This document shows positions 13,129 through 63,789 of a DNA stretch of 64,000 nucleotides, piece after piece. The DNA is taken from IMG/VR virus record IMGVR_UViG_3300025530_000008, one strand, 5' to 3'. This DNA is from an uncultured virus (IMG/VR IMGVR_UViG_3300025530_000008) (taxonomy: Duplodnaviria > Heunggongvirae > Uroviricota > Caudoviricetes > Herelleviridae). Below the pieces are notes generated by a model. That model was not told the origin of the DNA and did not search any database. It saw nothing but the letters and a program-made list of their open reading frames with translations. The translations under genes and the position numbers were made by a program. Within the stretch, counting starts at the first letter, position 1. Each line of letters opens with the position of its first letter.

Positions 13129-13668
13129 ATGCTGACGATTCTCGGTATTGATCCCGGGACCGCGAACACCGGGTACGCGATTATTCAGGGCGACACCCAT
13201 ACCGGAAAAGCGTCGCTCGGATCGTTCGGCGTCTGGCAGACAACGAAGGCCAGCGGGCTTACGGTGCGCGACCGCATTGACTCGCTGGCGGACCAGTACG
13301 CCGACCTGATAAGGATTTCCGGCGTTCAGATGGTGTCTGTGGAGGACTTCACAGAGCAGGGCCGGCGCGTCGGCAAGACCTACAAGGACATGGCGTGGCT
13401 GGTAGAAAACCTGCGAATCACTGGACGAACGCTGGGCGTACCCGTTTACATATACAAAAACGCGGAGTGGAAGCGGATCATCATGCATGCCGGACAGGCG
13501 ACGAAACGGCAGGTTCAGCATTTCGTATCGCACAACATTGCCGGCGCGGAACGTCTGAGAGGTTTCCCGGACCATGTATGGGATGCCGCGGCCATTGGAT
13601 ACTGCCTGTTTTGGCAGCGACATTTGGAGATAAAGCTGCTGTCCTCAGCACGAGCTCAGAAGCCCTAG
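13129..13668 (+). CDS. ruvC: Holliday junction resolvase RuvC-like
   Basis: ILGIDPGTANTGYA, VSVE, ATKRQVQ, DHVWDAAAIG. Confidence 0.9.
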   Translation: MLTILGIDPGTANTGYAIIQGDTHTGKASLGSFGVWQTTKASGLTVRDRIDSLADQYADLIRISGVQMVSVEDFTEQGRRVGKTYKDMAWLVENLRITGRTLGVPVYIYKNAEWKRIIMHAGQATKRQVQHFVSHNIAGAERLRGFPDHVWDAAAIGYCLFWQRHLEIKLLSSARAQKP

Positions 13669-13695
13669 AATTCTGGTATAGTGCCTGTGTATGCT
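13666..13695 (+). promoter_or_regulatory. TAGAAT-class phage promoter (18-bp spacer)
   Basis: TAGAAT...GCCTGTG-TATGCT, same motif as at 21670, 22077, 23529 and 26712. Confidence 0.6.
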
Positions 13696-20141: not shown

Positions 20142-20170
20142 AGCCGCCCTCTCGGGCGGCCTTTCTTTTT
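20141..20170. terminator. terminator between convergent genes
   Basis: GCCGCCC-TCTC-GGGCGGC followed by a T-tract. Confidence 0.75.
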
Positions 20171-20474
20171 ATTCGAACCCTGCCAGCATGTTCCGAAGGA
20201 TATCGTCATCCGCTTCAACCGCCGGCTCAGGGGGCTTGTATTCGACAGCCGGCTCCAGCGGAGGCGGCGCGGGCGCCGCAGCAGGCGCAGCGGTCGCAGG
20301 AACCGCGACGATCTTCGGAAGCTCCGATGCCCGGACGTACTCGCCGCGCTCGACGGCCAGACCGAGCAGGTAGAGCTCTCGGATGCGGGCGGACTGATTC
20401 TTATATCTGCTCAAGTCCTCCATGATCTCGGGGTGCTTCTTCCCCGGCCGGAAGGCGACGAAGTTCCGGGCCAT
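20169..20474 (-). CDS. ParR-like partition adaptor
   Basis: Small gene directly after parM; N-terminal RHH-like segment (NQSARIREL), Pro/Ala linker, acidic-hydrophobic tail. Confidence 0.6.
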   Translation of the reverse strand: MARNFVAFRPGKKHPEIMEDLSRYKNQSARIRELYLLGLAVERGEYVRASELPKIVAVPATAAPAAAPAPPPLEPAVEYKPPEPAVEADDDILRNMLAGFE

Positions 20475-20477
20475 ACG

Positions 20478-21653: not shown

Positions 21654-21755
21654 CACTTCGGAAGCGCGCTAGAATTTTGCAAAACGCCTGTGTATGGTGA
21701 ACATGAGGGAGGAACACTCCTGCCTCCAATCACAAAAAGGAGCTGATATATCATG
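21654..21755 (+). repeat. promoter-leader cassette copy 1 (CTTCSGAAG, TAGAAT-N17-TATGGT, hairpin, AAAGGAGCTG SD)
   Basis: Near-identical to 22061-22161. Confidence 0.9.
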
Positions 21756-22079
21756 CGGAAACAAAAGGTACTCGACCGGTGCACGAATATGCACGGAAAG
21801 CTCGGATCAGAGCTTGTGGATCGGATCAAGGATTACCTGAACGAGCCAACGATGGACAGATGGGATGACATCCACTCGATCATCATCGACGGTCGATCGT
21901 TTAAGACGATCTGGAACGCAGTGCTGGAATACGACCCGACGTTCCCGTCGTCGGGCCGGGTGACGGACGCCAACGGCCGGATCATTCAGGAATGGGCGAG
22001 AATTCCAACGCCGTTTGAGCTCATGAAGGCGATCCAACTGGCAACGCGGCCGATCATTTACACTTCCGAAGCGCGCTAG
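21753..22079 (+). CDS. hypothetical early protein
   Basis: Strong SD within the cassette. Confidence 0.75.
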   Translation: MRKQKVLDRCTNMHGKLGSELVDRIKDYLNEPTMDRWDDIHSIIIDGRSFKTIWNAVLEYDPTFPSSGRVTDANGRIIQEWARIPTPFELMKAIQLATRPIIYTSEAR

Positions 22080-22161
22080 AATTCTGCAAAACGCCTGTGT
22101 ATGGTGAATCTGAGGGAGGAACACTCCTACCTCCAATCATAAAAAGGAGCTGATATTTATG
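22061..22161 (+). repeat. promoter-leader cassette copy 2
   Basis: Near-identical to 21654-21755. Confidence 0.9.
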
Positions 22162-23528: not shown

Positions 23529-23557
23529 TAGAATTTCGGGAAAGTCCTGTGTATGTT
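23529..23557 (+). promoter_or_regulatory. TAGAAT-class phage promoter
   Basis: TAGAAT-N17(..CCTGTG)-TATGTT, then hairpin and SD. Confidence 0.75.
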
Positions 23558-26411: not shown

Positions 26412-26714
26412 ATGGCGACTACCGTACTTCGTTACGAGCCGAAGCTGTACACGGACGGCGACTGCCTGCCGGAATCTGAGCACATGGACTGGAACGACTG
26501 CCTGCTGATCCTAAAGCCGGACCGGCTTCCGATCGAGCAGCAGCTTCCGCCTTTCCAACTGTGGAAGGGTGACGGCGGGTTCGGGTGCACGCCGGGAACT
26601 GGCGGCGACGCCGTGTTCGCGATCAGTCTGGTGACCGGGGAGCGCCGGCGCTGGCGCCGCAGCGACTTCTATGGCGTGCTGAAGCCGGCTTACCAGCGCT
26701 GGCAGGCCAACTAG
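26412..26714 (+). CDS. hypothetical protein
   Basis: ATG after a G-rich SD; GGFGCTPGTGG motif. Confidence 0.6.
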   Translation: MATTVLRYEPKLYTDGDCLPESEHMDWNDCLLILKPDRLPIEQQLPPFQLWKGDGGFGCTPGTGGDAVFAISLVTGERRRWRRSDFYGVLKPAYQRWQAN

Positions 26715-26740
26715 AATTTTAGATTTTGCCTGTGTATGTT
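26712..26740 (+). promoter_or_regulatory. TAGAAT-class phage promoter
   Basis: TAGAAT-N17(..GCCTGTG)-TATGTT, then hairpin and AAAGGAGCTG SD. Confidence 0.75.
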
Positions 26741-32850: not shown

Positions 32851-32876
32851 AATTTTCAAAGAGAGGGATGAGGTGA

Positions 32877-35184: not shown

Positions 35185-35617
35185 GCCGCGCAAGTACGAA
35201 CTGACGGACGAGGTAAAGACGGTCAGCGGCCCGGGAGGTCGGAAGGTTACCCTGCGCCGCATCCGGGGCGGGGTTCCTAACTACGTGAAGCATGCGCTCG
35301 TGCAGGCTGCAAAGCACAACGAGAAAGCGCGACAGTTTGAGCGTAAAATCGAGCGCTGGCTGGAACAGCACGATATTCATGATCTCGATGTGGTGCGGGA
35401 TATCCTGATTGACTGCACGCAGCTCGAGAACCGGCCGGATGAGGCGATTCGGCGTCTGGAGGATGTGATCGATAGCGTGCGTCAGTACAAGGCGTACTAC
35501 AAACAAACAGGCAAGTCCCGAGCAAGCAAAGTCCAACAAGCAAGCGCAAGTCCCAAACAAGCAAGCGCAAGTCCCAAACAAGGAGGCAGGTATCGTGACA
35601 TCACCGCTGAAATATAA
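35177..35617 (+). CDS. chimeric ORF: hexapeptide-paralogue N-terminus fused to unrelated sequence
   Basis: MSEPRKYELT...VTLRRIR then diverges; 21-bp tandem repeat near the end. Confidence 0.55.
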   Translation: MSEPRKYELTDEVKTVSGPGGRKVTLRRIRGGVPNYVKHALVQAAKHNEKARQFERKIERWLEQHDIHDLDVVRDILIDCTQLENRPDEAIRRLEDVIDSVRQYKAYYKQTGKSRASKVQQASASPKQASASPKQGGRYRDITAEI

Positions 35618-36638
35618 GCTCGTAGGAAAGCCGCGCGTGAAGTTCTCGCCTTCCGAAGGGCGTGAGATCGCGCTGCACCAGATTCAAGCACTAATCGATC
35701 TTCCGAAGCACGGCGTTAAGGCCGGCGATATCGGCGGGTGGGTTGAAGGCCCGCACAACCTGAATCAGGAAGGTGCCTGCTGGGTCGAGGGTGAGGCCGA
35801 AGTGTACGGCGAGGCGCGTGTGACGGATGACGCGCTCATCCGCTGTCAGGCGAGGGTGTACGGAAGCGCCGTGGTCGCAGGGGATGCGACGGTTGAAGGC
35901 GTGGCGAAGGTGTACGGCAAGGCGCTCATCTCCGGCAGCGCGCGGGTTTCCGGCAATTCCGATATCTGCGGGCATGCCGACGTTTCCGGCAGCGCGGTGG
36001 TGCACGATACCGACATTGAGGACCACGCCGTTATCAAGGATAACGTTAAGATCGTCGACAGCTACGTGCGTGACCGCGCGGTCGTGCGCGGGGATATGAT
36101 GATCAGAAACGCCTACATCATCGAGCATGCGCATATCGAAGGCAACGGAACGCTCGAGAAAATAGCCGTCAGCGGCCACGCCCGTATTTCGGGGAATGTT
36201 ACGCTTCATAAAGTGATCATCTCGGACCATTCACTGATTATGGGCGACATAGTCCTGCGCGGGAAGCAGGAGGATGGCATGAACACATCCTGCCGCGTGC
36301 GCGGCAGGATGATCTTCCGTGACGGTGCCTATGTGACGCACCCGGAGCACATGCTGGCCATCTCACCCATCGGCCGTGATCTGGATACGCTGACGGCCTA
36401 CACGGGCGTTACGACCGGCGAAGACGGCAAGCAGCAGGCAGTGATCCGCGTCGCCCGCGGGCTGTACACGGGAACCATCGATGAATTCATTGATCACGTT
36501 ATCGAGAAGGACGCCGGGGAGCGGAAAGAGGAAACGTTCATCTACCTGCAGTTGGCGCCGCTGATAAAGTCGCACTTCGCCAGAGCGGTAAAAGAGCTTC
36601 AAGCCGTGCTGGATGCGCAGGCGAGCGAATCACATTAA
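35595..36638 (+). CDS. hexapeptide-repeat protein 4
   Basis: Same architecture. Confidence 0.85.
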   Translation: MTSPLKYKLVGKPRVKFSPSEGREIALHQIQALIDLPKHGVKAGDIGGWVEGPHNLNQEGACWVEGEAEVYGEARVTDDALIRCQARVYGSAVVAGDATVEGVAKVYGKALISGSARVSGNSDICGHADVSGSAVVHDTDIEDHAVIKDNVKIVDSYVRDRAVVRGDMMIRNAYIIEHAHIEGNGTLEKIAVSGHARISGNVTLHKVIISDHSLIMGDIVLRGKQEDGMNTSCRVRGRMIFRDGAYVTHPEHMLAISPIGRDLDTLTAYTGVTTGEDGKQQAVIRVARGLYTGTIDEFIDHVIEKDAGERKEETFIYLQLAPLIKSHFARAVKELQAVLDAQASESH

Positions 36639-45180: not shown

Positions 45181-46980
45181 ATGTCGACAGTTCTGGAGTT
45201 ATGGCAGTCGGCGCCGAATGGCGAACAGCTTCTGAAGGCATTGGAGAATGACCGGGCCTTAAAGCAGCAGGAGACGGCGAAGCCGAAGTCCGCGTTTATC
45301 GATCCGTACAACGTGTACGGACTCGGCGGAACACGGGCGAAGCAGGCGGTCATCAATTACCGGCTGCTGCGGCAGATGGCTACGGTGCCGCCGGTGGCTG
45401 CCATTCTGCTTACCCGACTCAATCAAGTCGCCCGTTTTACGAACCGGCCGCGGTTTGAGGGAGATATTGGGTTCCAGATCATCCACAAGAACAAGACGAA
45501 GAAAATGACGAATGCGCAGCGCAGGCGCGCGGTCGAGATCGAAGAATTCTTTCTGAAGACCGGCTGGGCGAATAACAAGCTGCGCAAGGATAACTTCAAC
45601 GCCTTCGTTCGGAAGATTGTCCGGGATACGCTGGTACTGGACGCCATGACGTTTGAGCTCGTGCCGAACCTGAAGGGCGAGCTGGCGGAAATCTGGGCCA
45701 TCGACGCGGAGACGATCGAGCTGGTTGCCAATGCGCCGGTCGGTTACGGCCGCGAGCTGCCGGTGTACGAGCCGATGACCAAAGACGGCCTGCGGCTGGG
45801 CAGCGACAATATCGCATATGTGCAGCGCATCAACGGCGAAATCGTGGCCGAGTACTCGGAAGAACAGCTTGCATATGCGGTACGCAACCCACGGACGGAC
45901 ATCTTACTGGCGGACTTCGGGCATTCCGAGCTGGAAGTGCTCATCGAGATCGTCACGGGCATCCTGAACGGCATCCGCTACAATACGACGTACTTCACGC
46001 ATAACCATGTGCCGCAGGGCGTGCTGTCGATCATCGGCAAGTATGACGATGAGCATTTGGAAGCCTTCAAGCGGCACTGGCGTGTGATGACCAGCGGCGC
46101 CGCCGGAAAGTGGGCTGCTCCGGTCATCGCCGTGGAGGACGGACAGGGCATCAACTGGACACCGTTTAAGCAGTCCAATCAGGACATGCAGTTCAACGAA
46201 TTCCTTGAGTTCCTGTTTAACATTGCGTGCGCGGTGTACCAGATCGACCCGAATGAAGTTGGCTTTAAGAGCTGGACCAGCTCGAGAGCGTCGCTTACCT
46301 CGTCTGACAACACAGCAGAACGCATGGAGCGGTCGCAGGACAAGGGATTCGTCCCGCTGATGAACTTCCTTGCGAACGTGTTCAATCACGAAATCCTGCC
46401 GCTCATCGACGACGAGTTCGAGTTTACGTGGGTTGGTCTCGACGAGCAGGACGAGGACAAAAAGCTCGAGCGTCAAGTCAAGCAGCTCGGCTCCGGCATC
46501 ATCACGGTTGCCGAAGCCCGCAAGGCCGACGACCGCGACGAGCTCATCAACCCGGCGACCGGCAAGCCGTGGATATGGACGCAGGCACCGGCGAATCCGC
46601 AACTGCTTCAGGTGTTCATGGCCGAGTCCGGCCTGAATCAGCCGCAGGGCGGTCCGGGAGCTCAGGGTTCCGAAGACGGGGAAGGCGCCGAAGATCAGGA
46701 TCAGCGCGACGCTCAGCAGTCGGGTGAGCAGGACGAGCAGCAGGATAAGGACCCGGCGGAAGCCAGCCACGAGCGAGAGCTTGAGAAGATGGAGCGCCGG
46801 CACGAGCTTGAGCTTGAGCAGAAGAAGCTCGAGCACGAACATCAAATGGAGCTCGAAAAGCTGCGGGCGGAGGCTCGGCAGCAGAAGGTGAATAAGTCAC
46901 TGACGGAGACGGCTGATCCGCGGAACGCTCCGGCGGACGATGAGGCGGTCGAAATCTCCATCACATGGAGTGACTACTGA
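45181..46980 (+). CDS. portal protein (SPO1-like)
   Basis: FVRKIVRD, YVQRING, NPRTD...G.SELE, DMQFNEFL, IDPNEVG; located downstream of TerL. Confidence 0.9.
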   Translation: MSTVLELWQSAPNGEQLLKALENDRALKQQETAKPKSAFIDPYNVYGLGGTRAKQAVINYRLLRQMATVPPVAAILLTRLNQVARFTNRPRFEGDIGFQIIHKNKTKKMTNAQRRRAVEIEEFFLKTGWANNKLRKDNFNAFVRKIVRDTLVLDAMTFELVPNLKGELAEIWAIDAETIELVANAPVGYGRELPVYEPMTKDGLRLGSDNIAYVQRINGEIVAEYSEEQLAYAVRNPRTDILLADFGHSELEVLIEIVTGILNGIRYNTTYFTHNHVPQGVLSIIGKYDDEHLEAFKRHWRVMTSGAAGKWAAPVIAVEDGQGINWTPFKQSNQDMQFNEFLEFLFNIACAVYQIDPNEVGFKSWTSSRASLTSSDNTAERMERSQDKGFVPLMNFLANVFNHEILPLIDDEFEFTWVGLDEQDEDKKLERQVKQLGSGIITVAEARKADDRDELINPATGKPWIWTQAPANPQLLQVFMAESGLNQPQGGPGAQGSEDGEGAEDQDQRDAQQSGEQDEQQDKDPAEASHERELEKMERRHELELEQKKLEHEHQMELEKLRAEARQQKVNKSLTETADPRNAPADDEAVEISITWSDY

Positions 46981-48287
46981 TGGCAAAGAGCCTTAACATA
47001 AAGCTTCCGAAGGACATATTGGCGGCGCCGGAAAACGTCCGGCGCGCCGTACTGGAGACGCTGCGCACGGCCATGAAGCTTCCGAAGGAAGTCCCGCTCG
47101 TGCGCGGCGACGGTCCGGTTGAGCACAAGCTGTGGGAGCGCAACAGTGACGAGCTCATGGCCGACACGGAGGATGCGTTTTACGAATGGCTAATCCAGCC
47201 GGCGACCGAGCGGATGGCCGACCTGTTTATCGCGCTGGGACTGTCGCTGGATGGTGTGAAGGTCGAGAAGGCCTTCAGCAAAGAGTTCGATGTCTACGCC
47301 GACCAGCTTGTAAAGGCCCGCGGCGGCCGCAAACCGAACGCGAAGAAAGCGCTTGAGGAATTGATCAAGATCGGCCGCGAGAAGCGTGAGGCGTTTCTGA
47401 AGTACATCAATGACGCCAAACCGCTGTCCAAAAAGGACCTGCGGGCGCTTGACAAGCTGCTGCGGTCGAAGCTGGCCGAGTACGCCCAGAAGACGATCGA
47501 GGCGTTTCAGGTGCGCGCCGGCATGCTGGCAAAGATTCGGAATCAGGCGGACAAGGAATTTTTCACGACGGTCGGCGCATACGTTGACCGCTACCCGGAG
47601 ACGGTGAAGGCTGCCGAGCGCGAGCATACCGTACTGACGATTCCTGAGAAACGCAAGGCGGACGCTGAGGGCCGGAAGGTTATCATCAAGCCGCTTACCC
47701 GGCAGGAGGCGCAGGCGGTGGAACACGCCGTCCAGAGCGCGGCCGAGAAGATATCCGAAGTCAACGAGCGGCACATCAACGGCATCCGGCAGCTTGTGGT
47801 GCGAGCAAAGCGCGAACGTTGGAGCGCGGAGCGTCTGGCGCAGGAGCTTTACGACATGTACGGCGAACAAAACCGCGACTGGCGACGCGTCGCCATTACG
47901 GAGCTCGCCATGGCCGATAACGATGCATACCTGTCCGGGGTCGAGGAAGGTGAGACGGTCGTCGGGATGAGCTCGGCCGGTATGTGCAAGCAATGTGAAA
48001 AGCTCATCACGTCGAAGACGTATATCGTCACCCACGACCCGGAGAAGATGAACGAGCAGTACGGACACACGCATGTATGGCCGGGCAAGACGAACTTCGG
48101 AAGGCGCGTCAGCGAGTACTGGCCGTGCATCCCGCTTCATCCGAACTGCCGTTGTCGCTGGCACCGCATCTCCCGCTTCTATAAAATGGTCGACGGCAAG
48201 CTCGTCATGAAGACGACGGCTGAGCTCATTCAGGAAGAACGGGCGCGGCGCGGGCTGCCGCCGGACCCGAATCTGAAGGAGGAATGA
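46980..48287 (+). CDS. MuF-like minor head protein
   Basis: DWRRVAITE, CKQC, IPLHPNCRCRW. Confidence 0.85.
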   Translation: MAKSLNIKLPKDILAAPENVRRAVLETLRTAMKLPKEVPLVRGDGPVEHKLWERNSDELMADTEDAFYEWLIQPATERMADLFIALGLSLDGVKVEKAFSKEFDVYADQLVKARGGRKPNAKKALEELIKIGREKREAFLKYINDAKPLSKKDLRALDKLLRSKLAEYAQKTIEAFQVRAGMLAKIRNQADKEFFTTVGAYVDRYPETVKAAEREHTVLTIPEKRKADAEGRKVIIKPLTRQEAQAVEHAVQSAAEKISEVNERHINGIRQLVVRAKRERWSAERLAQELYDMYGEQNRDWRRVAITELAMADNDAYLSGVEEGETVVGMSSAGMCKQCEKLITSKTYIVTHDPEKMNEQYGHTHVWPGKTNFGRRVSEYWPCIPLHPNCRCRWHRISRFYKMVDGKLVMKTTAELIQEERARRGLPPDPNLKEE

Positions 48288-53200: not shown

Positions 53201-54726
53201 ATACGGACCTTTCGGAAGTCATTTATATCCCGGTCAACCGCCTGCGTATGGTTTACCAGACAGACGAAGCAACGGACTGGGATAAGGTATGGGAAAACAT
53301 CGAGAAGATGCGATCCGGCGAGGCGCTTAAGCCGGTCGAGATCGGATACGACTACGACATACACGACGGACATCACCGTTGGCTGGCCTCGAAGGAGCTC
53401 AACTACACGCACGTTCCCTGCATCGTTAAGGGTAAGGACGAAGCGGAGCGGCAAGAAGCAATAGCCCGGTACCGCGAGCTGTGGAAGTCGCTGGACGACA
53501 AAGAATTGACAGGCGGAAGATGGGTAACAATCGAGCATCGTCATGTGTACATCAAAGGCGGGAAAGTAGTTGCCGGGCATCTTCCGAACGGAGATAAGAT
53601 GGAGGCACACCACATCAAAGAAACCCAAGAAAAGATAGACGCACAATCTTCCGAAGACCATCTTGAACGGGCGAAGAAGGCAGCGCGTAAAACCGACGAC
53701 CCGATGGAATGGCTGCACGGCATGCGCGAGAACGATAAGGCCGCTTACGACGCCGTAATAGCGTACCGTAGTAAGCACGGCGTTAAAATCCAAGACCTGC
53801 ACAAGGAATTCGGCGGCGGGGAAGACATGGACGAATACGTACCGGACAGCACGAAGAAGATGGATGACGTGAATATAGGTGAGCCGAAGTTTAAGGCGCA
53901 CGACGTTACGCTAAAGCGCAGGACAGACGGGCGTACAGCCCTAGCAAGCGCACCGACAGGCTCGACCATCCAAGTCCATGACGACTTGCTAAAGCACGAT
54001 AAGACCACACAGCGGTATGTCATTGCGCACGAAATCGGCCACATCCTTTCCAATGCGCACCCGGAGCTTGAACGGCATGTATTGGATAATCCAGAGGGAG
54101 CGCTTGGGCGGATGAACCGCAAGTACATGCGGTTTGAAGGTGTGTCCTACACACCGGAAGAATCATGGGCAGATGCGTTTGCATTCTATCACGTTGACCC
54201 GGAATACCTGAAAGTCAACCATCCGAAGGCATACGAATTCGTGGATAAGATGCTGAAAAAGATGCCGCACGCCAAGAGTTACCTTGAACATGCGTGGAAG
54301 CAGATGGATGACATGGCTGACATGAAAAAATCCATCGTAGCTGACCCGACCTCCGACACGCTGTCTTCCGAAGAAAGCGGAATGTTTATGTACCGGGGAA
54401 TCGGCCAGAAAGAGCTTGAATTCATTCTTCGGCATGGTTTCATTCAATCCAAGGGGAAGGGCAACGATGACGATAAGGGAAACAAGGATACCTGTTTTAC
54501 GTGCCTGTATCAACAGGCCGAGGGGTACGCCTTGTGGAACTACATCGAATATAACGAGCCAGCAGCCTACGTCATCATCGTACCGCGCCCGCCGTGGGTG
54601 TACGAGGACGAGCACGGGGAGCTTATCAGCGACCGTCCGGTTCCGTTCGACTTTGGCTCCGTTGTTTACATCCCGCACCCGGATGCAGATCGGAAAATCA
54701 CAAATGATCAGGCTTCCGAAGTATAA
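50221..54726 (+). CDS. polyvalent protein: Lys/Ala repeats, LPD1-like, ParB-like, zincin and possible ART domains
   Basis: FRAVEFGNY...AFGARG...LAHEWGHA...EMFARAFE; DGHHRW; AHEIGH; MYRGI. Confidence 0.85.
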   Translation: MAITRAQAKGVHKDLPPGGVWRTIRGNHVYILNGEIVAGAGVGKTGKPVKLTKKQLAEHFAELQKKDAAATKTRAATKTKAAEKKTASTKTKAAEKKSAATKTKAAEKKTASTKTKAAEKKSAATKTKAAEKKSAATKTKAAEKKSAATKTKAAEKKSAATKTKAAEKKTASTKTKAAEKKTASTKTKAAEKKTAATKTKAAEKKTASTKTKTSEKKRPEKKAPASEANTTRTRRVLDAQKIKPDDSLAASARKFKAKEVMDWYNSLSDADKDRVAKLKNLPESKVRASHIAASKRERLQHLVNAFHYLRAVGGLSAKSSDKERAGVKDVRHKAQEGRKVAYDVGEKVGGARKDLTAVAQRFEATPTAQDLEILEREHPEMAQKLVNKKNLLKPLDWETEYNNGVDVNVAMAKKLIYDRIAAQPAANDPMNRLLYFNAIQNIQRVLEPIKTWDEFQSATRELGNYMRRETPKELKYREFIAQSTAKKLQEDSPSEYDLTEFGAYYDRNKEKWVIPKDAKAKWREKMQRRLMEDLQKLAESKAANMAPMGLPLGEKFHNFFTSFDSWRRTMDTIRSKRLTWEKHFESLGQQKGRTDGGGKGDKLRPGEERSKIPVSEAKRVGGKAVKVSKPEDMVKNYGFRAVEFGNYVNDEDGKHHLQKASEAFSDLADVLGLSPRDASLGGKLAIAFGARGKGRALAHYEAVSKVINVTRDAGAGTLAHEWGHAMDNILHAESTGKPSIGFASDGIGDKGSSEVREAYEDVLNAMMRGNGTREVHYNGKAYHSPYEYKLWAQRDMPFQDAWKRVMSKLSQSFELEDKLAREHGMKISDQRLQKRQQILENHYHALAYAYTQAGRKIEPLRVPTTTSQFKANADALCGGRSGYWNRPHEMFARAFEAYVLDKLRKSGRRNDYLVYGTDHPMAYPQGEEREKINAAFDRLMAAVRKSGAIRKGLRIQMLLELFPDEELRKAVDDIMIDWPESGITERNAYDVDHDTDLSEVIYIPVNRLRMVYQTDEATDWDKVWENIEKMRSGEALKPVEIGYDYDIHDGHHRWLASKELNYTHVPCIVKGKDEAERQEAIARYRELWKSLDDKELTGGRWVTIEHRHVYIKGGKVVAGHLPNGDKMEAHHIKETQEKIDAQSSEDHLERAKKAARKTDDPMEWLHGMRENDKAAYDAVIAYRSKHGVKIQDLHKEFGGGEDMDEYVPDSTKKMDDVNIGEPKFKAHDVTLKRRTDGRTALASAPTGSTIQVHDDLLKHDKTTQRYVIAHEIGHILSNAHPELERHVLDNPEGALGRMNRKYMRFEGVSYTPEESWADAFAFYHVDPEYLKVNHPKAYEFVDKMLKKMPHAKSYLEHAWKQMDDMADMKKSIVADPTSDTLSSEESGMFMYRGIGQKELEFILRHGFIQSKGKGNDDDKGNKDTCFTCLYQQAEGYALWNYIEYNEPAAYVIIVPRPPWVYEDEHGELISDRPVPFDFGSVVYIPHPDADRKITNDQASEV
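50449..50844 (+). repeat. 36-bp tandem repeat x11 (TKTKAAEKK[S/T]A[A/S])
   Basis: Seen directly. Confidence 0.9.
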
Positions 54727-54780
54727 TCAAGCTGCGGACAGCCTGCGAATTCGCATGCTACAATAGCAGTAACATGCGCG

Positions 54781-54837: not shown

Positions 54838-57800
54838 ATGAAACCGGCGCTTGTCATCGACCTGCAAAAAGCGTCGGCCGCCCGGACGTGGCGCGAAGAA
54901 CTGCATCCGCGGGATGAGCAGGGCAGGTTCACGCGCATCCGGGGTGGTAGCCGTATCGTGACGCGTACCGGTAAAACCGGCCGTGTACACAAGGTCACGG
55001 ATACGCACTATCATGTCACTGCCGACGACGGGTCGAAGTTCACGGTATCCAAAAAGAATGCCGTGCACTATGACGACTATGAAGCCGCAATGAAGGCGGC
55101 GAAAAAGAACAAGCGGAAGGCGAGTGCCGCCGCGAAGAAGGCGAAAGCCACGAAGGCGAGCAACAAAGCAAACGCCACCGGCAAAACCGGTGCAGCAAAA
55201 CCGCTGGCAGACCCGACGAAAAAGGCAGCGAAGAAGAATCCCGCGGCGAAGAAAACTTCCGAAGCTGCCGAGAACAAAACGCTGGTGATGCCAGTTACGC
55301 CGAAAAAGCGCAAGGCAGAAAAACCTCTTGATAACGAGCAGAACCGGGCGATTGCTGAGGTTGCGGAGATCGAGAAAACGCCGGAGAAGGCGAATCTCGA
55401 CAAGCAGTGGCAGAGTGCTGAAGTCCAGAACATCCTGAAGAAGCCGGTCAACAAGCGGAGCGCTGAAGAAATCCGGCGCGTGGCCGGCAAGCTGACGAAG
55501 GAAAATGACAAGCTTGCCCGCCACGTCGTACATAAAATGGCGGCAGCCCGCGGCATGAGTATTCTGGGACAAGTTTACCGATTAAAGCGCCATGTAGGCG
55601 GTAACCGATCCAAAGAGGGGAAAGAGGAAGCAAAGCTGCACGGTGCCACGGTGGTACAGGAAACCGGACTGTACGGCGACCTGCTGCAATCTGCTCGAGC
55701 ATCGATGTTTGCGACCCTTTCCAGTGTGCTTTCCGGCAGCCAGAACCCGCGGAAGGGTACGGCGATCGGCGCGCACGTCATCAGCCGGATGCGTCAGCAG
55801 CTCCATAGGGATATGTACGACATCCTGAATACCATTCCGGCACCGCATGAGATTCGCACAGCAATCGGCGACGCTTGGAAGGCGGAGGAAACGCTGACGG
55901 GTAAGCTGGGCCGCACGCCGACGCATGACGAAGTCGCTTCATACCTTCAGAAGAATTCGAAGGCGTTCCGCGAGGCGCCGATCATGCAGCCGCCAGTCTG
56001 GAACGAAGATAAGGGCGAGTGGGAGGCGAAAAATCAGCGCGTGACAGACCCTTCGGAACGGCTGCGCGTGCTGAAGAACTACGCCGACCAGCAGAAGGCA
56101 ACACATCTGGATCAGGGCGTTACGGACGAACGAACCGGCGAGCGTCGGAACGTGGCCGAAGCTATGGCCGACCGCACGGCAGCGTCACCGGAAGCCCGCG
56201 CCATCGAGCGCGAGCGTCAGCAAGAGCTGCGGACGGCACTTCCGAAGGCTATGAAAGAGATGGGTCTGACCGACGACGAGATTCGCGTCATGGTGATCAA
56301 GTTCTCGAATCCGTCCTCGACGACCAGCAAGCCGACGATGACCTCGCCGGAAGTGGCCGCTTATCTGAAAGAGCACTACGGAATGGATGTCACGTCGAAG
56401 TGGGTCGACAACCGGATTACGCTCGGCATGCAGAAGATCAAGCGGGCGCGGGAGCAAAATCACCCGGCGCTGGAGCAACTGCGCATGCTGAAGTCGCTGG
56501 TGGTCCGGGCGATCCTGAAGATGAGCTGGGAAATCGATCTGTACAAGGCCCTGACGAGCTGGGGACTCACCCCGGATGTGCTGGAGATGCGACCGACGCG
56601 CATCGTCTACGGCCGGAGCCGGGAAGACATCCTGAAGTCGCTCGAGCCGCATGAATACGTCGGCAGCTTCGTTACGTTCGAAGACGGCGAAGTCGCTGCG
56701 CAGGTAACGGAGCTCACGCTGCCTGAAGGTCACGAACTTCGGAAGGCCTTTATGGACACGCTTCAGAAGGCCATGTTCCCGCACAAGGGAGCATCCAACG
56801 CCGAGATCAACAAGAAGGCGCAGGAATACGTACGGGCCAATAAACAGCGGTACGCCAGTCTGGCGGACCAGCAACTGGGACGTATCCGGGGAAAAGGCGG
56901 TAGCCTCACATGGTCTGAAGAACTTCTTCTGAAGAACCCGGGAAGCGCGTGGATCACGTGGGGCGGTAAACGCATCCTGATTAACACCGGGAACGGTGAG
57001 ATCATATACGACTCCCGGAATGAGGCACACCGCGAGGACTACAACCAAGGGGCGCAGGAAGACAAGATCGAGTTCCACCACGAGAAGGAAGCCGGCGTCA
57101 GTGAGGAAAACGCTCACGAGCACGACCACGGCATCCAAGCCTTCCGAAACGAGTTCATGAACCGCATGCGGGACGAGTGGATCAAGAAGGAAGGCAACAA
57201 GATTGTCGGCGGAATAAAGGGAGAGTTTTTGCAACACAACTCGCACAAGGCACTGGACGTGTACCGCGACCTTTCGGATGAGGAACGGAAGGCACTTGAT
57301 GACATGGGCGCCGACCGCGAGGCGAAAGCGGCGTTCCTCGGCGACCACTTCCTGCGTAAAGAGGGCGTCATCGAAGCGCTCCAGCAATACCGGAACGGCG
57401 AGCTTTCGGAAGAAGACATTCGGCAGCGGCTGGCCGGTCTGGGGTCGCTGGCGGGACGCAACTCGAAGATGATGGCTTCGTTCCTCGGCGACGTGAAGAA
57501 GCACGACCCGGCGACGGAGGAAGGGCTTAAGAAGCTGGCCGAATCGTTCGGTGCGAAAGAAATGACTCGTGCTGGCGAAGAAGCGAGCAAGAACCTTCTG
57601 CCGGAGGGCAAATACATGATTGGCAACCCGATTACGGGCAAAACCATGATTGTACACGTTGGCGGTGCCTTCACCGGCGGCCGCGGCAGCCGGAAGAAGG
57701 ACGAGTCCGGCAAAGAGGAAAAAGGGAAGTACACTTCCGAAGTTCTCGAAGCGTTCGACCCGGATGGCCGCATCCATGAGACGATCAACACGTGGGGCGA

Positions 57801-60800
57801 TCTCGGCCGGGCACTCGGCTACACGGGCAAAGAGGCAAGCGACCTGAAGGCGACGCTGGTGGCACACGCCAACACGGCGCCGGATAAGCCGTTCATGCAG
57901 AAAATTTCGGATGAGGAATTCGCCCAGCACCGGGCGAAGACGAAAGCCGGGCTTCAGGAGTCCATGCTTCATAAAGATTTCCGGCTGGTCGACCAGACCC
58001 GGGACAAGGACGGCAACATCACGAGCCAGACCTTTGCTCAGAAGATGCCGGACGGCACCATGAACCACATCACGGTCGACGGCAGCGGCCGGATTACGGA
58101 CCCGCTGATGCGACGCCTGCTCAACCAGCGCGCACCGGTGACGAACGAGAAGGAACTGAACGAACTTCTGAAGAACGCGGTCGGCAACCGGGTATGGGTG
58201 ACGGCACACTTCGGAAGCGACATCCACATCGGAGACGCGCTGGGCCATCACGTGCAACTGGAGTATGACGGAAAAGGCGCGCCGCGGGTAGTCGGCGGAA
58301 AGTACGACGGCTATCGGTACGTTGACCGCCGCGACATTCCGAAAGGCGCAATCGACCCGGCAACGGGCGAGCCGGTAAAAGCGCTGTTCCGCAACGGCCG
58401 ATTGGTTGATCGTCGATTTACGACGAAAAATGACGTGCCGATGCGGGAAGGTAATCCGGTCATGTACAGGGACGGCGACAGCTACAAGAAGGGCCGCATC
58501 TACTCCATCGAGGGCGACAACTACAAGATCACGGATGGCCAAGGGCACGTCATCGGCATTTTCAAGAAGGAAGACCTGAAGCCGGCGAAGCAGGAAGGTC
58601 GCATGCTTTCGGAAGCCGGAACGGCCGTGCTGAAGGTAGCTCAGACCGGTACGCACCGCTTGAACGTACAGGAAGCACTGGCTGACATGTCGAAGGGCCG
58701 CCGGAAGCTGCTTGAAGAAGCCCTTCAGAGGGCACACATCCAGCGCGCAGCATTCGACTCCGACGGTAACCTTCGGAACGAGCTGGAGCTGTCGGATGCA
58801 GCGCACAAGCGGCTGAGCAAAATCCTCGGCCGGTCGAAAGCCGGACGGGAAATCCTGTCGAAGTTCAACAGCGCCTACACGAAAGAACTGGAGCTGCATG
58901 TGCCGGAGCGCCTGCGGAGCGTGGTCGAAGCGGAAGGCGTCCGGGTGCTGGCAGACGGCACGGCGCGCATTTCGGCATCGAAGTTCGAACAACTTCGGGA
59001 TGTGCTGAACAACGCCGGCAGCGGCATTTCGCTGACCTATCAAGCGCAGGAGCATTTGGCGGATCACTTCGCCCGCAAAGATCGTGTTCCGAAGGAAGTC
59101 AGCGAGCTGCGGAAGAAGTATCAGCCGTCGACGATTGAATCCGGCGACAAGGAATTCGACAAGCACTACAAGGCGCAGTTCAACGAGAAGTCGTACCTGA
59201 TGGACCCGTCAAAAGGTCTGTACGGCACGCAGCTTGACGGCGTCTCGCACCTCATCGAGCGCGGCCGGGGCATTGCCGGCCACGGCATGGGTACGGGTAA
59301 GACGATCCTCGGCGTGGTTGCCGGCCTGCATACGAAAGCGCAGGCGCTTGCTCGGGGCGAGAAACCGAAGAAGACGCTTATCGTGGCGCCGAAGGGCATC
59401 ATGTCGGACTGGGGCAAGGAAATCGCCACGCACACCAACAGCAAGGCGCTCTATATCGGTGGCGCAAGCAGCTTCGCCGGAGCGAAGCGCGGCGAGGACG
59501 GTAAGCGCTACTGGGGCCAAGCCGGCACGGAGCAGGAAGCTGTCGACATTCGGAAGTTCAAGAAAGGCTCGCACGCCGGTCAAGATCACGACTTCCATAT
59601 CGTCAGCTACGACACGTTCATGCGGAACCGCGACTTCTTCGCCAACAGCGGCGAGTACGACAACATCGTCATCGACGAAGTCCACGCCTTCAAGAACCAG
59701 AAAGGCAAGCGCGGCGCCGCGCTGGCGGAGACGACGGACAAGTTCAAGAACGTGTGGGGCCTGTCAGGTACGCCGATGGAGAATGATCCGCGTGAGATGC
59801 ACGCATTGGTCGACACCATCACCGGCGGCCGGCACGAGCTCGGAAGCCTGCGGGAGTTCCAGAACAAGTACATGATGAAGGACCGCAACGGCAAGCTGGT
59901 CGGCATCAAGCCGAGCATGGCGGAAAAGCTGGGCGACATTCTGGCATCCATAGTGCAGTTCCGAAGCGGCGAGGACGTAACCTACAACGACGGCAGCAAG
60001 ATTCGCTTCCCGCATCTGGTTGGTCAGCAATCGAATGATCCGGGACAGAATCCGAGTCCTCCGGTCGACTTCATCGGTGACATGGTCGACCGCAGCCGCG
60101 ACCACCAGACGACGGATTACTACGGCACGAAGCACTCGATTACCGATTTCGAAACCAGTACGAAGCAGGTTACCAACGCGAAAAGCGGCGAAACCTACGA
60201 GGTCACCACGACGACGCCGAAGAATGTATCGCCGGAGCTGGCGGCCATGTATGATACGTACAAGTCACTTGAAGCGAAGTACCTGCCAGCATCGAAGCTT
60301 AACGAGCTGGCGTCTGCGGCCGCAACAGGCATCGATCAAGGCCAGAAAGGTCAGTCGAACTACCTGACGGCCATGCAGAAGCTTCAGAAGTTCCTGAATG
60401 CACCGCTGGCGCACAAGATGTATGTCGAAGGCGGAAACGCAATCGATTCCGACGCAACGGATGCGCAGGCGGAAAAGCCGGCGAAGGGTGGCGCCTCCGG
60501 TCTGGTCGAAGGCAAGCACTACATCGTCGACGAGAACGGCTTCAAGCGCTACTTTGAAAGCGACGGCAAGGGCGGTTACCTGCGTAACCCGGACGGCAGC
60601 CCGAAGCTGCTGCCGCCGCTGCACAAGCAGAATCCGAAAGCGCAGTACCTGCAAGACCGGATTCACAAGTATCTGGATTCGCTCATGTTGGAGAACCGCC
60701 GTCGGGTAGCCCGCGGCGATAAGCCGCTGGTGCCGAAGGTTGTCGTGAAGTCGAACTACACGACGTTCGGCACAGACATCGTCGACAACGTGCTGAAGGA

Positions 60801-61449
60801 AGTCCGTAACACGCACCCGATCTTCGCCGAACTGGCGCGGCAGGGTTACACGAACTTGACCCACGGACAGTTCACCGGTGAAGCGAAGGACCGGGAAGAA
60901 ACAAAGAGCGGCTTCCGCGGCAACAAGCACGACTACCTGAATAATCAGGGCAACCTGTGGGCCACGACGGTTTCGCCGGCCGGTAAAGAAGGCGTTGACT
61001 TCGGAAACGCGCATCTGATGATCCACTACGATCAAGACTGGAACCCGCAGAAGATGGCGCAGTTTACGGCGCGCGTCCGGCGGTCGGACTCGGCGAAGAC
61101 GCACGAGCAGGTCGGCCGGGCGAATGCGGTTCGGGTCGAATCGCTGCACGTTCCGAATACGGTCGAGGACTTCATCTTCAACGCGCAAGACGCGAAGATG
61201 CGTGCGATTCAGCACGTTGTCCAAAGCACCCGGGATGCAGAGGCCTTCCCGAAGCTCGGTGAAACCGAAGGCACGGTCGGTTACGGTGCCCGCGGATTCA
61301 CCAGTCGCAAGCAGCCGCGTCAGCCGGTTGCACCGGCACGACCGGATAAAGCGCCGAGCATTCCAAAGCCCGGAAGCGGCGGAGCTGAAGTTCGGAAGCC
61401 CATGTTGGCGAGTGCTGACAAAGCACTGAAGTTAGTGGTACTCTTGTAG
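54838..61449 (+). CDS. giant polyvalent protein with a sigma70-like domain and C-terminal SNF2 ATPase
   Basis: Sigma regions 2-4 (DLLQ, LGRTPTHDEVASYL, LTDDEIRV...MTSPEVA); SNF2 GMGTGKT, IDEVH, SGTPMEN, GKEGVD, DWNP. Confidence 0.85.
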   Translation: MKPALVIDLQKASAARTWREELHPRDEQGRFTRIRGGSRIVTRTGKTGRVHKVTDTHYHVTADDGSKFTVSKKNAVHYDDYEAAMKAAKKNKRKASAAAKKAKATKASNKANATGKTGAAKPLADPTKKAAKKNPAAKKTSEAAENKTLVMPVTPKKRKAEKPLDNEQNRAIAEVAEIEKTPEKANLDKQWQSAEVQNILKKPVNKRSAEEIRRVAGKLTKENDKLARHVVHKMAAARGMSILGQVYRLKRHVGGNRSKEGKEEAKLHGATVVQETGLYGDLLQSARASMFATLSSVLSGSQNPRKGTAIGAHVISRMRQQLHRDMYDILNTIPAPHEIRTAIGDAWKAEETLTGKLGRTPTHDEVASYLQKNSKAFREAPIMQPPVWNEDKGEWEAKNQRVTDPSERLRVLKNYADQQKATHLDQGVTDERTGERRNVAEAMADRTAASPEARAIERERQQELRTALPKAMKEMGLTDDEIRVMVIKFSNPSSTTSKPTMTSPEVAAYLKEHYGMDVTSKWVDNRITLGMQKIKRAREQNHPALEQLRMLKSLVVRAILKMSWEIDLYKALTSWGLTPDVLEMRPTRIVYGRSREDILKSLEPHEYVGSFVTFEDGEVAAQVTELTLPEGHELRKAFMDTLQKAMFPHKGASNAEINKKAQEYVRANKQRYASLADQQLGRIRGKGGSLTWSEELLLKNPGSAWITWGGKRILINTGNGEIIYDSRNEAHREDYNQGAQEDKIEFHHEKEAGVSEENAHEHDHGIQAFRNEFMNRMRDEWIKKEGNKIVGGIKGEFLQHNSHKALDVYRDLSDEERKALDDMGADREAKAAFLGDHFLRKEGVIEALQQYRNGELSEEDIRQRLAGLGSLAGRNSKMMASFLGDVKKHDPATEEGLKKLAESFGAKEMTRAGEEASKNLLPEGKYMIGNPITGKTMIVHVGGAFTGGRGSRKKDESGKEEKGKYTSEVLEAFDPDGRIHETINTWGDLGRALGYTGKEASDLKATLVAHANTAPDKPFMQKISDEEFAQHRAKTKAGLQESMLHKDFRLVDQTRDKDGNITSQTFAQKMPDGTMNHITVDGSGRITDPLMRRLLNQRAPVTNEKELNELLKNAVGNRVWVTAHFGSDIHIGDALGHHVQLEYDGKGAPRVVGGKYDGYRYVDRRDIPKGAIDPATGEPVKALFRNGRLVDRRFTTKNDVPMREGNPVMYRDGDSYKKGRIYSIEGDNYKITDGQGHVIGIFKKEDLKPAKQEGRMLSEAGTAVLKVAQTGTHRLNVQEALADMSKGRRKLLEEALQRAHIQRAAFDSDGNLRNELELSDAAHKRLSKILGRSKAGREILSKFNSAYTKELELHVPERLRSVVEAEGVRVLADGTARISASKFEQLRDVLNNAGSGISLTYQAQEHLADHFARKDRVPKEVSELRKKYQPSTIESGDKEFDKHYKAQFNEKSYLMDPSKGLYGTQLDGVSHLIERGRGIAGHGMGTGKTILGVVAGLHTKAQALARGEKPKKTLIVAPKGIMSDWGKEIATHTNSKALYIGGASSFAGAKRGEDGKRYWGQAGTEQEAVDIRKFKKGSHAGQDHDFHIVSYDTFMRNRDFFANSGEYDNIVIDEVHAFKNQKGKRGAALAETTDKFKNVWGLSGTPMENDPREMHALVDTITGGRHELGSLREFQNKYMMKDRNGKLVGIKPSMAEKLGDILASIVQFRSGEDVTYNDGSKIRFPHLVGQQSNDPGQNPSPPVDFIGDMVDRSRDHQTTDYYGTKHSITDFETSTKQVTNAKSGETYEVTTTTPKNVSPELAAMYDTYKSLEAKYLPASKLNELASAAATGIDQGQKGQSNYLTAMQKLQKFLNAPLAHKMYVEGGNAIDSDATDAQAEKPAKGGASGLVEGKHYIVDENGFKRYFESDGKGGYLRNPDGSPKLLPPLHKQNPKAQYLQDRIHKYLDSLMLENRRRVARGDKPLVPKVVVKSNYTTFGTDIVDNVLKEVRNTHPIFAELARQGYTNLTHGQFTGEAKDREETKSGFRGNKHDYLNNQGNLWATTVSPAGKEGVDFGNAHLMIHYDQDWNPQKMAQFTARVRRSDSAKTHEQVGRANAVRVESLHVPNTVEDFIFNAQDAKMRAIQHVVQSTRDAEAFPKLGETEGTVGYGARGFTSRKQPRQPVAPARPDKAPSIPKPGSGGAEVRKPMLASADKALKLVVLL

Positions 61450-62175: not shown

Positions 62176-63789
62176 ATGCGTTCCACGCTGGAAAACAACG
62201 ACACTTACCATCTGTGGGTGCCCATTGAAGACGCCGACCTGATGAAGTCGGTCGAAGTCGATGAAAATGGCGACTGGATTGTTCGCGGCGTCATGACATC
62301 CGACGACAAGGACGAGGAAAACGACGTTATCAGCCCTGAAGGTATGGATTGCTCGTACTTCCTCGAGAAAGGCTGGATCAAATACGAGCACGGCAACAAT
62401 CCGAACCAGTTCATCGGCGAACCGATCGCCGTCAAGGTAGGGCGCTTCAAGCATCCGACACTCGACAAGTCGGTCAACGGCGTCTATGTCGAAGGCAGGC
62501 TGTACCGTAACCGCGAGCTTGCAAAGCAGGCCGTTCAAACGATCGAAGACCTTCAGAAGTCGAACACCAAACGGCGGATGGGTTGGTCGATCGAGGGCAG
62601 CGTGCGCGAGCGGTGCCGAAAGACCGGCAAAATCGTGAAATCCGTTCTTCGGAACGTGGTACTTACGATGAATCCGGTAAATACAATGACGTGGGTCGAA
62701 CTGGCGAAGTCCTTCGCTAAAAACCACGAACTGACGATCGACATGCCGATGGACAAGTCTCTTGACACCGGCGAAATGGCGGAAGTGACGCCGCAGTCGG
62801 TCGAGGGCGGGAGCAAGAAAGCTGTTCCCGAAGTAAGCGACGAGGCATGGAGCCGTCTTCTGCGCGCTTTCGTTGAAAGCGACGAAGACGATATCCATAA
62901 ATCCGTGGACTCGCCGGGAAGTTTGGCCATGAAGGCCTTCGCCTTTGCCAAACTGAAAGGCTTCAACTACGACGACGCCTACACTTTCGGTGCGTTCGTC
63001 AAGCAAAACCACGGGAAAATTCGGCTCTTAATCAAGAGCCATGGGGGTGAGACGATGAGCAAGCAAACGGGTGTGCTCGACACGGCGCTGGAGGAACTGG
63101 AGAAGGCGCTGGACATCGAAGCTGTGCAGGACGAGGACGAGCTGCTGAAATCGCAATCTTCCGAAGATGACGAGGAAGATTACGAGGACGACAGCGAGGA
63201 CTACGAAGACGCCGACGAGGACAGTGACGAGGACAGCGACGAGGACAGCGACGAGGACAGCGACGAGGACAGCGACGAGGAAGGCGACGGCGAAGGTTTT
63301 GCGAAGTCCTTCAGCAAGGACAGCACGGTGCAGCAAGCGCTGGAAGTCTCGGACTTCCTGTCCAGACTCGTCGACGAAGTCGGCTACTCGATCGACACCG
63401 TGAACAAGTCCCTGAGCAGCGTAAGCCGTCAGCAAAGCGCACTTCTGAAGGCATTCAAGGCCGTTGGCGAACAGCTCCGCGACCTTGCGGAAGAAAACGC
63501 TGAGCTGAAGAAATCCTTCGAAGAACTGCTGAATCGTCCGATCGGGCGCCGCGGCGTAACGTCGACGCGGGAAGTCCAAACCATCACGAAGGGCTTCAAT
63601 CTGGGTCCGCAGCCGATGGAAGGCAAGCTGACGAGAGCGAGAGTGCTCGCCGAGCTGAATAAATCGTTCGAAGCCGGCAACTACAGCCTCGGCGAAGAAA
63701 TCATGCGCTACGAGGCGGGTGTTCCGCTCGAGAACTTGAACCTTCCGCACGAGCTGCGCGTGAAGTTCGGCCTCGCATCGGCTGAATAA
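62176..63789 (+). CDS. prohead protease fused to an acidic scaffold-like domain
   Basis: GWIKYEH, IGEP, VEGRLY, MGWSIEG, NVVLT.NPVN; DEDS repeats; coiled-coil C-terminus. Confidence 0.88.
   Translation: MRSTLENNDTYHLWVPIEDADLMKSVEVDENGDWIVRGVMTSDDKDEENDVISPEGMDCSYFLEKGWIKYEHGNNPNQFIGEPIAVKVGRFKHPTLDKSVNGVYVEGRLYRNRELAKQAVQTIEDLQKSNTKRRMGWSIEGSVRERCRKTGKIVKSVLRNVVLTMNPVNTMTWVELAKSFAKNHELTIDMPMDKSLDTGEMAEVTPQSVEGGSKKAVPEVSDEAWSRLLRAFVESDEDDIHKSVDSPGSLAMKAFAFAKLKGFNYDDAYTFGAFVKQNHGKIRLLIKSHGGETMSKQTGVLDTALEELEKALDIEAVQDEDELLKSQSSEDDEEDYEDDSEDYEDADEDSDEDSDEDSDEDSDEDSDEEGDGEGFAKSFSKDSTVQQALEVSDFLSRLVDEVGYSIDTVNKSLSSVSRQQSALLKAFKAVGEQLRDLAEENAELKKSFEELLNRPIGRRGVTSTREVQTITKGFNLGPQPMEGKLTRARVLAELNKSFEAGNYSLGEEIMRYEAGVPLENLNLPHELRVKFGLASAE

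Follow-up and report, generated by a model that had tools for sequence, protein, structure and literature searches.

Can a phage carry promoter specificity into its host inside a structural polyprotein and leave the polymerase to the cell? This question is raised by a 64,000-nucleotide (nt) stretch of DNA from an uncultured virus of the Herelleviridae (IMG/VR record IMGVR_UViG_3300025530_000008; the whole stretch is called the window below), in which a head-module gene encodes a polyprotein of 2,203 amino acids (aa) with a sigma70-like module and a SNF2 ATPase. The original prediction, made from the sequence of the window, held that the phage packages and injects this sigma factor and redirects host core RNA polymerase (RNAP) to TAGAAT promoters before any phage protein is synthesized.

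We propose, tentatively, a modified form of that scheme. In it, a SPO1-related myovirus of ∼94 kb would synthesize the polyprotein late and load it into the prohead as virion cargo. There the phage protease would cut it at K-S/A bonds, separating an N-terminal piece of ∼540 residues (with the beta domain, the basic linker and sigma2-4) from a ∼1,550-residue SNF2 piece. At the next infection the sigma piece would enter with the DNA, bind host core RNAP and direct it to promoters composed of -35 TAGAAT, 17 bp and CCTGTG-TATRnT, which lie before small-gene and DNA-metabolism blocks. A second, parallel set of promoters would be served by host sigmaA.

A sigma module inside a head-gene polyprotein

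The polyprotein consists of a leader and a beta-rich N-terminal domain, a Lys/Ala-rich linker, the sigma module (residues ∼204-546), a cluster of K-S sites, a middle region of ∼800 aa and the SNF2 ATPase (Table 1). The sigma module is divergent, but sigma2, sigma3 and sigma4 are all present. The ten peptides on which the original prediction was built lie in order and in frame at residues 222-535 (nt 55501-56442), and its claim of a complete sigma70-like module is borne out by homologue and structure matches. The window sequence taken alone is a weak sigma match (Pfam Sigma70_r3 E 0.0037, below the cut-off; B. subtilis-type SigA chain 7ckq_F, E 0.049), and the assignment is firm because homologues and structure support these matches. 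A search with the region retrieved 32 homologous proteins (1,254-2,361 aa, 37-99% identity), of which 26 are annotated as SNF2 and two have names, assigned automatically by JGI, in which sigma is mentioned. Two distant homologues exceed the Pfam cut-off in an unfiltered search, P0038 with Sigma70_r2 (E 1.4e-6) and P0035 with Sigma70_r4 (E 2.3e-6), and P0006 and P0012 have a sigma3 match above it. P0038 has its sigma fused to a ParB-like part in place of SNF2; the genomic context of P0035 and P0038 was looked for and not found. FliA is the best profile for the window protein (E 7.8e-4), and TIGR02479 (FliA/WhiG) is matched by 10 of 12 aligned members (best E 6.8e-8). By sequence the module thus appears closest to the group-3 FliA/WhiG sigmas, though far below curated cut-offs (14.2 bits for the window protein against 189.6 bits required). 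No cultured relative emerged among 50,697 phage records, none of which was matched by the sigma part, the full protein matching through SNF2 only; GTDB genome contigs likewise yielded no sigma relative.

Structure comparison agrees with this assignment. The AlphaFold model of the module (mean pLDDT 78.5, pTM 0.41) predicts a sigma fold, as had been anticipated, and all 49 of the 49 Foldseek PDB matches listed are RNAP/sigma complex entries (best E 1e-4, with low global TM); structural identity to host sigmas among these matches is 13-19%, a strong divergence. ESM Atlas assigned Sigma70 families at 0.95. With VIA-align, model residues 4-134 superimposed on sigma2 of SigI6 (Z 8.4, rmsd 3.1, 84 aligned) and of pro-sigmaK (Z 8.3, rmsd 2.1, 68 aligned), residues 130-218 on sigma3 of SigF (Z 6.7) and residues 253-341 on sigma4 of SigD4 (Z 8.0), Z values that are moderate for helical domains compared one at a time. 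The sigma2 bundle, the sigma3 domain and the sigma4 helix-turn-helix (HTH) of the sigma70 family were all found, and we consider the presence of a sigma fold in the polyprotein practically certain.

Four residues of sigma2 are invariant (D281, Q284, H313 and R317). In an alignment to SigA, using what we take to be the sigma70 numbering, Y430 corresponds to H313 and W434 to R317, Q437 and R441 are kept in the window protein, and H455/E458 are not; the residue equivalent to E407, on presumed numbering, is not retained either. This pattern of kept and lost positions would suit a -10 element that starts with T-A and has an extension other than TG. An equivalence of the invariant R340 with sigma70 E458/sigmaS K173 was dropped when an ungapped alignment placed a variable residue there (for K173, the available text of PMC3367168).

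A complex model of sigma residues 201-425 with residues 1-330 of a Paenibacillus beta' subunit scored 0.83, and the best of three controls scored 0.00; the mark applied is reached by 116 of 157 solved pairs and by 2 of 215 mismatched pairs. The runs agree in at least 93% of contacts, partner pLDDT is at least 78, and the closest contacts place the invariant D281/Q284 of region 2.2 on the beta' clamp helices 264-287. The proposed binding of host core thus gains a docked model of region 2.2 on the clamp. However, this score may stem from resemblance to known structures and not from binding, because sigma-beta' is a textbook pair for which such complexes have been solved. We judge functional core binding by the module to be very likely.

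The original prediction missed the SNF2 ATPase in the same protein (Pfam E 1.8e-22), whose Walker A/B boxes and motifs III, V and VI are intact in 26 of 32 homologue rows, the other six ending before Walker B. The middle region has a confident fold in an 821-residue model (pLDDT 82.9), with a Tudor/KOW barrel as the sole known fold seen. No RNAP fold was detected in that model, in which single domains may be missed, and the idea of a hidden polymerase in this region was dropped on this comparison. At the G003 locus 65887-73687 and in homologues of 1,547-1,592 aa, a break shortly past the start of Walker A divides the SNF2 part; in G003 the insert there is ∼1 kb long, probably an intron or homing element.

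Cargo signatures and candidate cleavage sites

Nine related records (G001-G009; G005 and G008 taken without their last 258 and 211 bases) include six distinct genomes, G001-G006, on which the counts below are based. In all six the sigma-SNF2 gene sits between portal/MuF and the protease, beside an LPD1 polyvalent protein; its placement between MuF and the prohead protease had been described correctly, save that three genes precede it and two follow. The gene at 46980..48287 is called MuF-like for its position and for an HPNCRC motif that we take to be of MuF type; a Pfam search of its product gave no MuF match. The polyprotein shares the hallmarks of polyvalent proteins, in that it is large and multidomain, combines unrelated activities and has its gene in the head module close to MuF. 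In two distant loci this slot is occupied by InPase/ART/LPD1/SNF2 polyvalent proteins, and most of the 22 large open reading frames scanned had no such match.

Cysteine content also distinguishes this protein. The window polyprotein has none, as do 21 of the 32 homologues, which together hold 12 in 68,368 aa; the value is 13.06 per 1000 aa in seven cytoplasmic families, among them that of the second SNF2 protein of the phage, and 2.55 in seven virion families. Sites of the hydrophobic-x-K-S/A type, to be cut after the lysine, are real and conserved among the 32 homologues, so the original claim of candidate protease sites flanking the sigma domain stands. At least three lie within aa 548-660 in 32 of 32 sequences, a density of 4.98 per 100 aa against 0.04 in the SNF2 part. 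The related motif LxKS is enriched in the head module of all six genomes (Poisson p 5e-6 to 8e-13), mostly owing to 8-13 copies in the protease-scaffold, and recurs at the capsid N-terminus. The homologous Kayvirus capsid protein has VVK24-S25, and its PDB chain 9row (439 aa) starts 24 residues after the 463-aa chain 5lii; these chain lengths are consistent with cleavage of this type, which for the polyprotein is predicted from its sites. Lead motifs are common to the polyprotein and the neighboring cargo genes.

Packaging of the polyprotein in the virion is likely, to judge from the head-module slot, the absence of cysteine and the K-S/A sites clustered right after sigma4, and cleavage there would release some 540 residues that include the sigma module.

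The cargo region is itself variable. About 900 bp of the 1,501-aa cargo gene (window 53490-54388) are absent from G001, where the protein has 1,189 aa, a module exchange within the cargo protein. Among the distant relatives L214, L221, L238 and L249, other cargo stands before the protease: InPase-ART-LPD1, SNF2-ART-LPD1, a Zeta-toxin-like kinase and a histidine phosphatase.

A putative family-specific promoter class and competing explanations

Bare TAGAAT occurs at chance level in the window (11 found against 13.3 expected), and as a -10 promoter it was rejected for lack of enrichment. The bipartite element TAGAAT-N12/13-CTGTGTATG has five copies in the window and none in 100 shuffles, and reads as -35 TAGAAT, 17 bp and -10 TATG[G/T]T. 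The TAGAAT promoters first proposed therefore persist in altered form, with TAGAAT as the -35 box of a phage-specific class. This box is TAGAAT in G003, AAGAGT/AATAGT in G002, TCCACT in G004, TATACT in G005 and mostly TAGAGA in G006, and all copies in relatives carry C[C/G]TDTG-TATRnT, with 4-13 intergenic copies per genome. Over 44 intergenic copies the boxes are fixed, the spacers variable and TTGACA absent. The class occupies 42 of 206 non-structural but 0 of 98 structural intergenic gaps in the six genomes, and the genes downstream include dUTPase and the second SNF2. From shape and position we infer that these elements are promoters. Among RNA contigs, X1 spans the whole promoter region and several X3-X5 pieces begin near 22101, 23576, 23611 and 26757; assembled contigs of this kind reveal neither transcript starts nor levels, and this stretch was itself used to find the RNA runs. 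A scan of viral contigs for the exact promoter gave single matches per locus only, which for that reason were treated as chance.

Module and promoter class occur together in G001-G006, and both are missing from sister Paenibacillus proviruses (one contrast, with incomplete records). In these proviruses, whose capsid proteins are 55-58% identical, the portal, MuF, protease and capsid genes are contiguous without cargo genes; the sigma had no match in 9 of 9 loci, and the promoter core gave 0-1 matches, the same as controls, in 6 of 6 records. RNAP beta/beta' genes (PF00623, PF00562) were found in none of five near-complete genomes, and in 14 of 14 controls, although a very divergent enzyme could escape such a search. 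Because the phage has no RNAP of its own, it may inject a sigma to steer the host enzyme. The claim that an injected sigma redirects host core thus keeps the sigma fold with its core-docking residues, the missing phage polymerase and the promoter class, with packaging, cleavage, injection and the reading of these promoters as the parts that we infer. Given core binding and packaging, it is reasonably probable that the sigma reads this class. Three of five genomes searched (G002 27906, G003 34688 and G006 ∼75000, oriented coordinates) encode a stand-alone sigma of the sporulation type, whose C-terminal extension is long (393-490 aa). It was not found in G001 or G004, which still have the promoters, and was rejected as their reader.

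Several observations weigh against an injected sigma and should caution interpretation. The promoter -10 (TATRnT) is sigmaA-like. Similarity of the -35 boxes follows capsid identity (rho 0.78, p 0.017) more closely than it follows sigma4-helix similarity (rho 0.43, p 0.05; n=6), and covariation of sigma4 with the -35 is not separable from relatedness in these six genomes. The sister clade provides a single phylogenetic contrast, from records only 56-66% complete, and in 24 of 32 sequences a K-A site lies inside the sigma module itself (LPKA470). In 6 of 6 genomes TGnTAnnAT is found 68-89 nt before the orthologous gene (shuffle frequency 0.006-0.07 per genome), and consequently host sigmaA could express it early; similar elements precede some other structural genes. 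Promoters of the TTGACA type stand before HU, HTH and nuclease genes in five of six genomes. With such host-type promoters present the phage can do without an injected sigma, and an early activator expressed from them could serve the special promoter class. The phrase "before any phage protein synthesis" is weakened by these host sigmaA-like promoters of several early genes and by the extended -10 of the sigma gene. Two promoter-like copies also occur inside genes of the structural arm, at G004 71466 and G005 13549 (oriented coordinates). They lie in the coding region of the cargo gene upstream, are followed by a stretch like a ribosome-binding site (RBS) and could allow early expression of a C-terminal part or of the sigma-SNF2 gene.

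Some of these points would be expected if the packaged sigma competed with or displaced host sigmas, as a shut-off factor or decoy, or read other promoters, and if host sigmaA, possibly helped by an early activator of the MotA kind, read the TAGAAT cassettes as PeSL-like elements. The sigmaA-like -10 and the lack of sigma4/-35 covariation beyond relatedness fit this explanation, as do conserved HTH proteins in all genomes (window 3733 and 8646), some behind host-type promoters, and the stem-loop and RBS that follow the copies in the manner of T4-type PeSL cassettes (available text of PMC2839356). A pure decoy, however, would not need regions 2.4, 3.0 and 4.2, which are kept, or the invariant or nearly invariant H313, R317 and PxPHExR. 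The -35 is moreover fixed per genome at a sequence other than TTGACA, the extended element is CCTGTG, CCTATG or CGTATG and not TGn, and records without the sigma also lack the promoter class; we hold this explanation to be unlikely. It is also unlikely that the protein acts chiefly in the cell that makes it, with host sigmaA transcribing the gene early, the sigma-SNF2 protein (whole or cut) serving as an SPO1 gp28-like middle sigma with a RapA-like ATPase, and packaging absent or incidental. The upstream TGnTAnnAT would agree with this, dUTPase and the second SNF2 are typical middle genes, and a Tudor/KOW domain precedes the SNF2 part, just as RapA has N-terminal Tudor domains. Yet the zero or near-zero cysteine is unlike every cytoplasmic enzyme, dense head-protease-type sites stand exactly after sigma4 although the protease is a late head protein, the lead motifs are those of neighboring cargo genes, and the upstream element is shared with some structural genes.

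Alternatively, the packaged sigma fold may no longer have a role in transcription and may assist the SNF2 motor by binding DNA or acting as a scaffold, for instance to protect DNA or counter restriction as P1 DarB does. Its strong divergence from host sigmas, the insertions in regions 2 and 3 and the loss of the residue presumed equivalent to E407 are in line with this, and the CTTCSGAAG palindrome spread over the genome suggests a protein that coats DNA. An anti-restriction function is described for SNF2 cargo proteins such as DarB in the available text of PMC5512222. We find this explanation improbable, since the protein still has all three sigma domains and the residues that dock on core in the beta' model, the predicted cuts separate sigma from SNF2, P0038 has the same sigma fused to ParB and not to SNF2, and G005 has the sigma-SNF2 protein but only one palindrome.

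We therefore return to the packaged, cleaved and injected sigma that reads TAGAAT-class promoters with host core. As a whole this chain falls slightly on the doubtful side, because it compounds a very likely core binding, a likely packaging and, given both, a fairly probable promoter reading. A wider and a shade more tentative proposal is that a family lacking RNAP packages, releases by protease and injects both the sigma and an SNF2 motor, which would give it private promoters from the first seconds, immune to translation-blocking defenses, with sigma and -35 having drifted between lineages into orthogonal pairs.

Table 1. Positions of the features discussed (window coordinates).
Feature	Position	Strand	Remarks
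Family-specific promoter copy	13666..13695	+	TAGAAT, 18-bp spacer, CCTGTG-TATGCT; before dUTPase
Family-specific promoter copy	21670..21698	+	TAGAAT-N17-TATGGT; then stem-loop and RBS
Family-specific promoter copy	22077..22105	+	bipartite motif
Family-specific promoter copy	23529..23557	+	bipartite motif
Family-specific promoter copy	26712..26740	+	bipartite motif
MuF-like gene	46980..48287	+	directly after portal; PHROG 2662 E 1.6e-6, HPNCRC motif
Co-cargo candidate, 477 aa	48782..50215	+	Lys/Ala repeats, GGxWRTIRG lead motif
Polyvalent protein, 1,501 aa	50221..54726	+	LPD1 E 1.5e-23, ParB-like, metallopeptidase-like
Extended -10-type element TGCTACAAT (TGnTAnnAT)	54756..54764	+	without -35; 82 nt before start codon; then hairpin, RBS
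Polyprotein open reading frame	54838..61449	+	2,203 aa, head-module gene
N-terminal IDLQKA leader	54856..54873	+	candidate head-protease site K11-A12, in 21/32 sequences
Sigma2, regions 2.1-2.4 (aa ∼204-334)	55447..55839	+	25-40 aa insertion between 2.1 and 2.2
Sigma3, regions 3.0-3.1 (aa ∼330-420)	55825..56097	+	PxPHExR motif, beta-hairpin insertion
Region 3.2 linker	56098..56187	+	low pLDDT
Sigma4 HTH (aa ∼453-546)	56194..56475	+	homologue profiles, structure model
K-[S/A] cluster, six hydrophobic-x-K-[S/A] sites	56485..56775	+	aa 552, 561, 570, 600, 636, 644; each in 22-32/32 sequences
Tudor/KOW-like beta-barrel (aa ∼1198-1256)	58429..58605	+	best Z 8.1, rmsd 2.0, 53 aligned
SNF2 ATPase and Helicase_C	59266..61083	+	Walker A GHGMGTGKT, DEVH, motif III, motif VI
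Head maturation protease fused to scaffold	62176..63789	+	PHROG 1028 E 5e-46; 8 LxKS sites

Genome setting and relation to known systems

The window corresponds to the 94,044-bp virus record G001, which has terminal repeats, at 99% identity over most of the window length. The genes of G001 include those for a contractile tail, a lysin with SLH domains, PolA, a primase-helicase of the MCM type, the second SNF2, HU and an actin resembling ParM. The G001 capsid protein shares 33-38% identity with those of SPO1-like phages and 55-58% with those of Paenibacillus prophages, so the host is probably a Paenibacillaceae-like member of the Bacillota. The ParM-like actin (window ∼20169-21563, minus strand; ALP_N E 5e-15 on the G001 copy) and a small divergent neighbor possibly serve plasmid-type prophage maintenance. 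Related hexapeptide-repeat genes (∼350-410 aa) form a tandem array at window 31747-36638 that differs between window and G001. The palindrome CTTC[C/G]GAAG is extremely over-represented, with 72 copies in the window and 107 in G001, evenly spread and in all reading frames; G001 genes contain 88, against ∼5 in synonymous-codon shuffles. Relatives within the G001-G006 set have 151, 145, 127 and 29 copies and G005 has one, and sister-prophage loci (∼21 kb each) have 0-1 per locus, which suggests a genome-wide binding site of a phage or host protein. TCCGGA is absent from the window and occurs 0-2 times in G001, G002, G003, G005 and G006 and 20 times in G004, a scarcity that suggests restriction-site avoidance.

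To our knowledge, the described routes to transcription at entry are use of the host holoenzyme, modification of host RNAP (T4 Alt) and injection of a whole polymerase (N4, phiKZ, possibly Arash). Injecting the specificity subunit alone would, if true, be a cheaper fourth route; sigma would join the polyvalent-protein repertoire, and orthogonal sigma-promoter pairs for Bacillota would become available. With a candidate sigma, its predicted cut sites and six lineage-specific promoter consensuses available, the proposal is testable in vitro without culturing the phage.

Among cellular sigmas, the group-3 factors (FliA/WhiG of TIGR02479, SigB/F) share the order sigma2-sigma3-3.2-sigma4 and the lack of region 1.1, whereas the present module has insertions in 2.1-2.2 and after 3.1 and is embedded in a 2.2-kaa protein. 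The predicted phage promoter is also unlike what we take to be the sigma28 consensus. Stand-alone phage sigmas (SPO1 gp28/gp34, T4 gp55 and the sporulation-type sigmas of Bacillus phages) direct host core to phage-specific promoters, as far as the available text of PMC3601020 and PMC7824862 goes, but they are small proteins made after infection; G002, G003 and G006 also have a stand-alone sigma of this kind. The PeSL cassettes of T4-type phages are likewise repeated promoter and stem-loop units in variable small-gene regions, and differ in having strong sigma70-like promoters where we find a lineage-specific, non-TTGACA -35 box (PMC2839356, in its accessible parts).

In the accessible parts of the study of Salmonella phage Arash (PMC10585845), mass spectrometry of particles detected the sigma Gp10 (467 spectra), the RNAP subunits Gp206/Gp216 and the helicase Gp217, and its authors suggest a role in early transcription and allow for carry-over. 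A packaged sigma is therefore not new in itself, and the original statement that the strategy is undescribed needs narrowing to a sigma inside a virion polyprotein, of which we found no account. The systems are alike in a phage sigma and a helicase, detected in Arash particles and known here as genes; Arash, however, packages its own beta/beta' and has sigma as a stand-alone gene, whereas here sigma lies inside an SNF2 polyprotein, its partner would be host core, and no beta or beta' gene was found in five near-complete genomes. Polyvalent proteins (P1 DarB, T4 Alt, N4 virion RNAP) are, in the available text of PMC5512222, large multidomain products of head-module genes located close to MuF; their domains include SNF2, LPD1, metallopeptidase and ART, and they are proposed or shown to be injected. 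Takeover of transcription there proceeds by N4-type RNAP or host RNAP modification. The word "sigma" is absent from the main text of that paper and of PMC9503650. Our literature search, which covered few subscription papers and not the supplementary architectures of PMC5512222, where such a fusion might be included, found neither a sigma inside a virion polyprotein nor a packaged sigma for host core. In conclusion, what sets the proposed system apart from known phage sigmas and from polyvalent cargo is its reliance on host core together with an identified and testable set of promoters.

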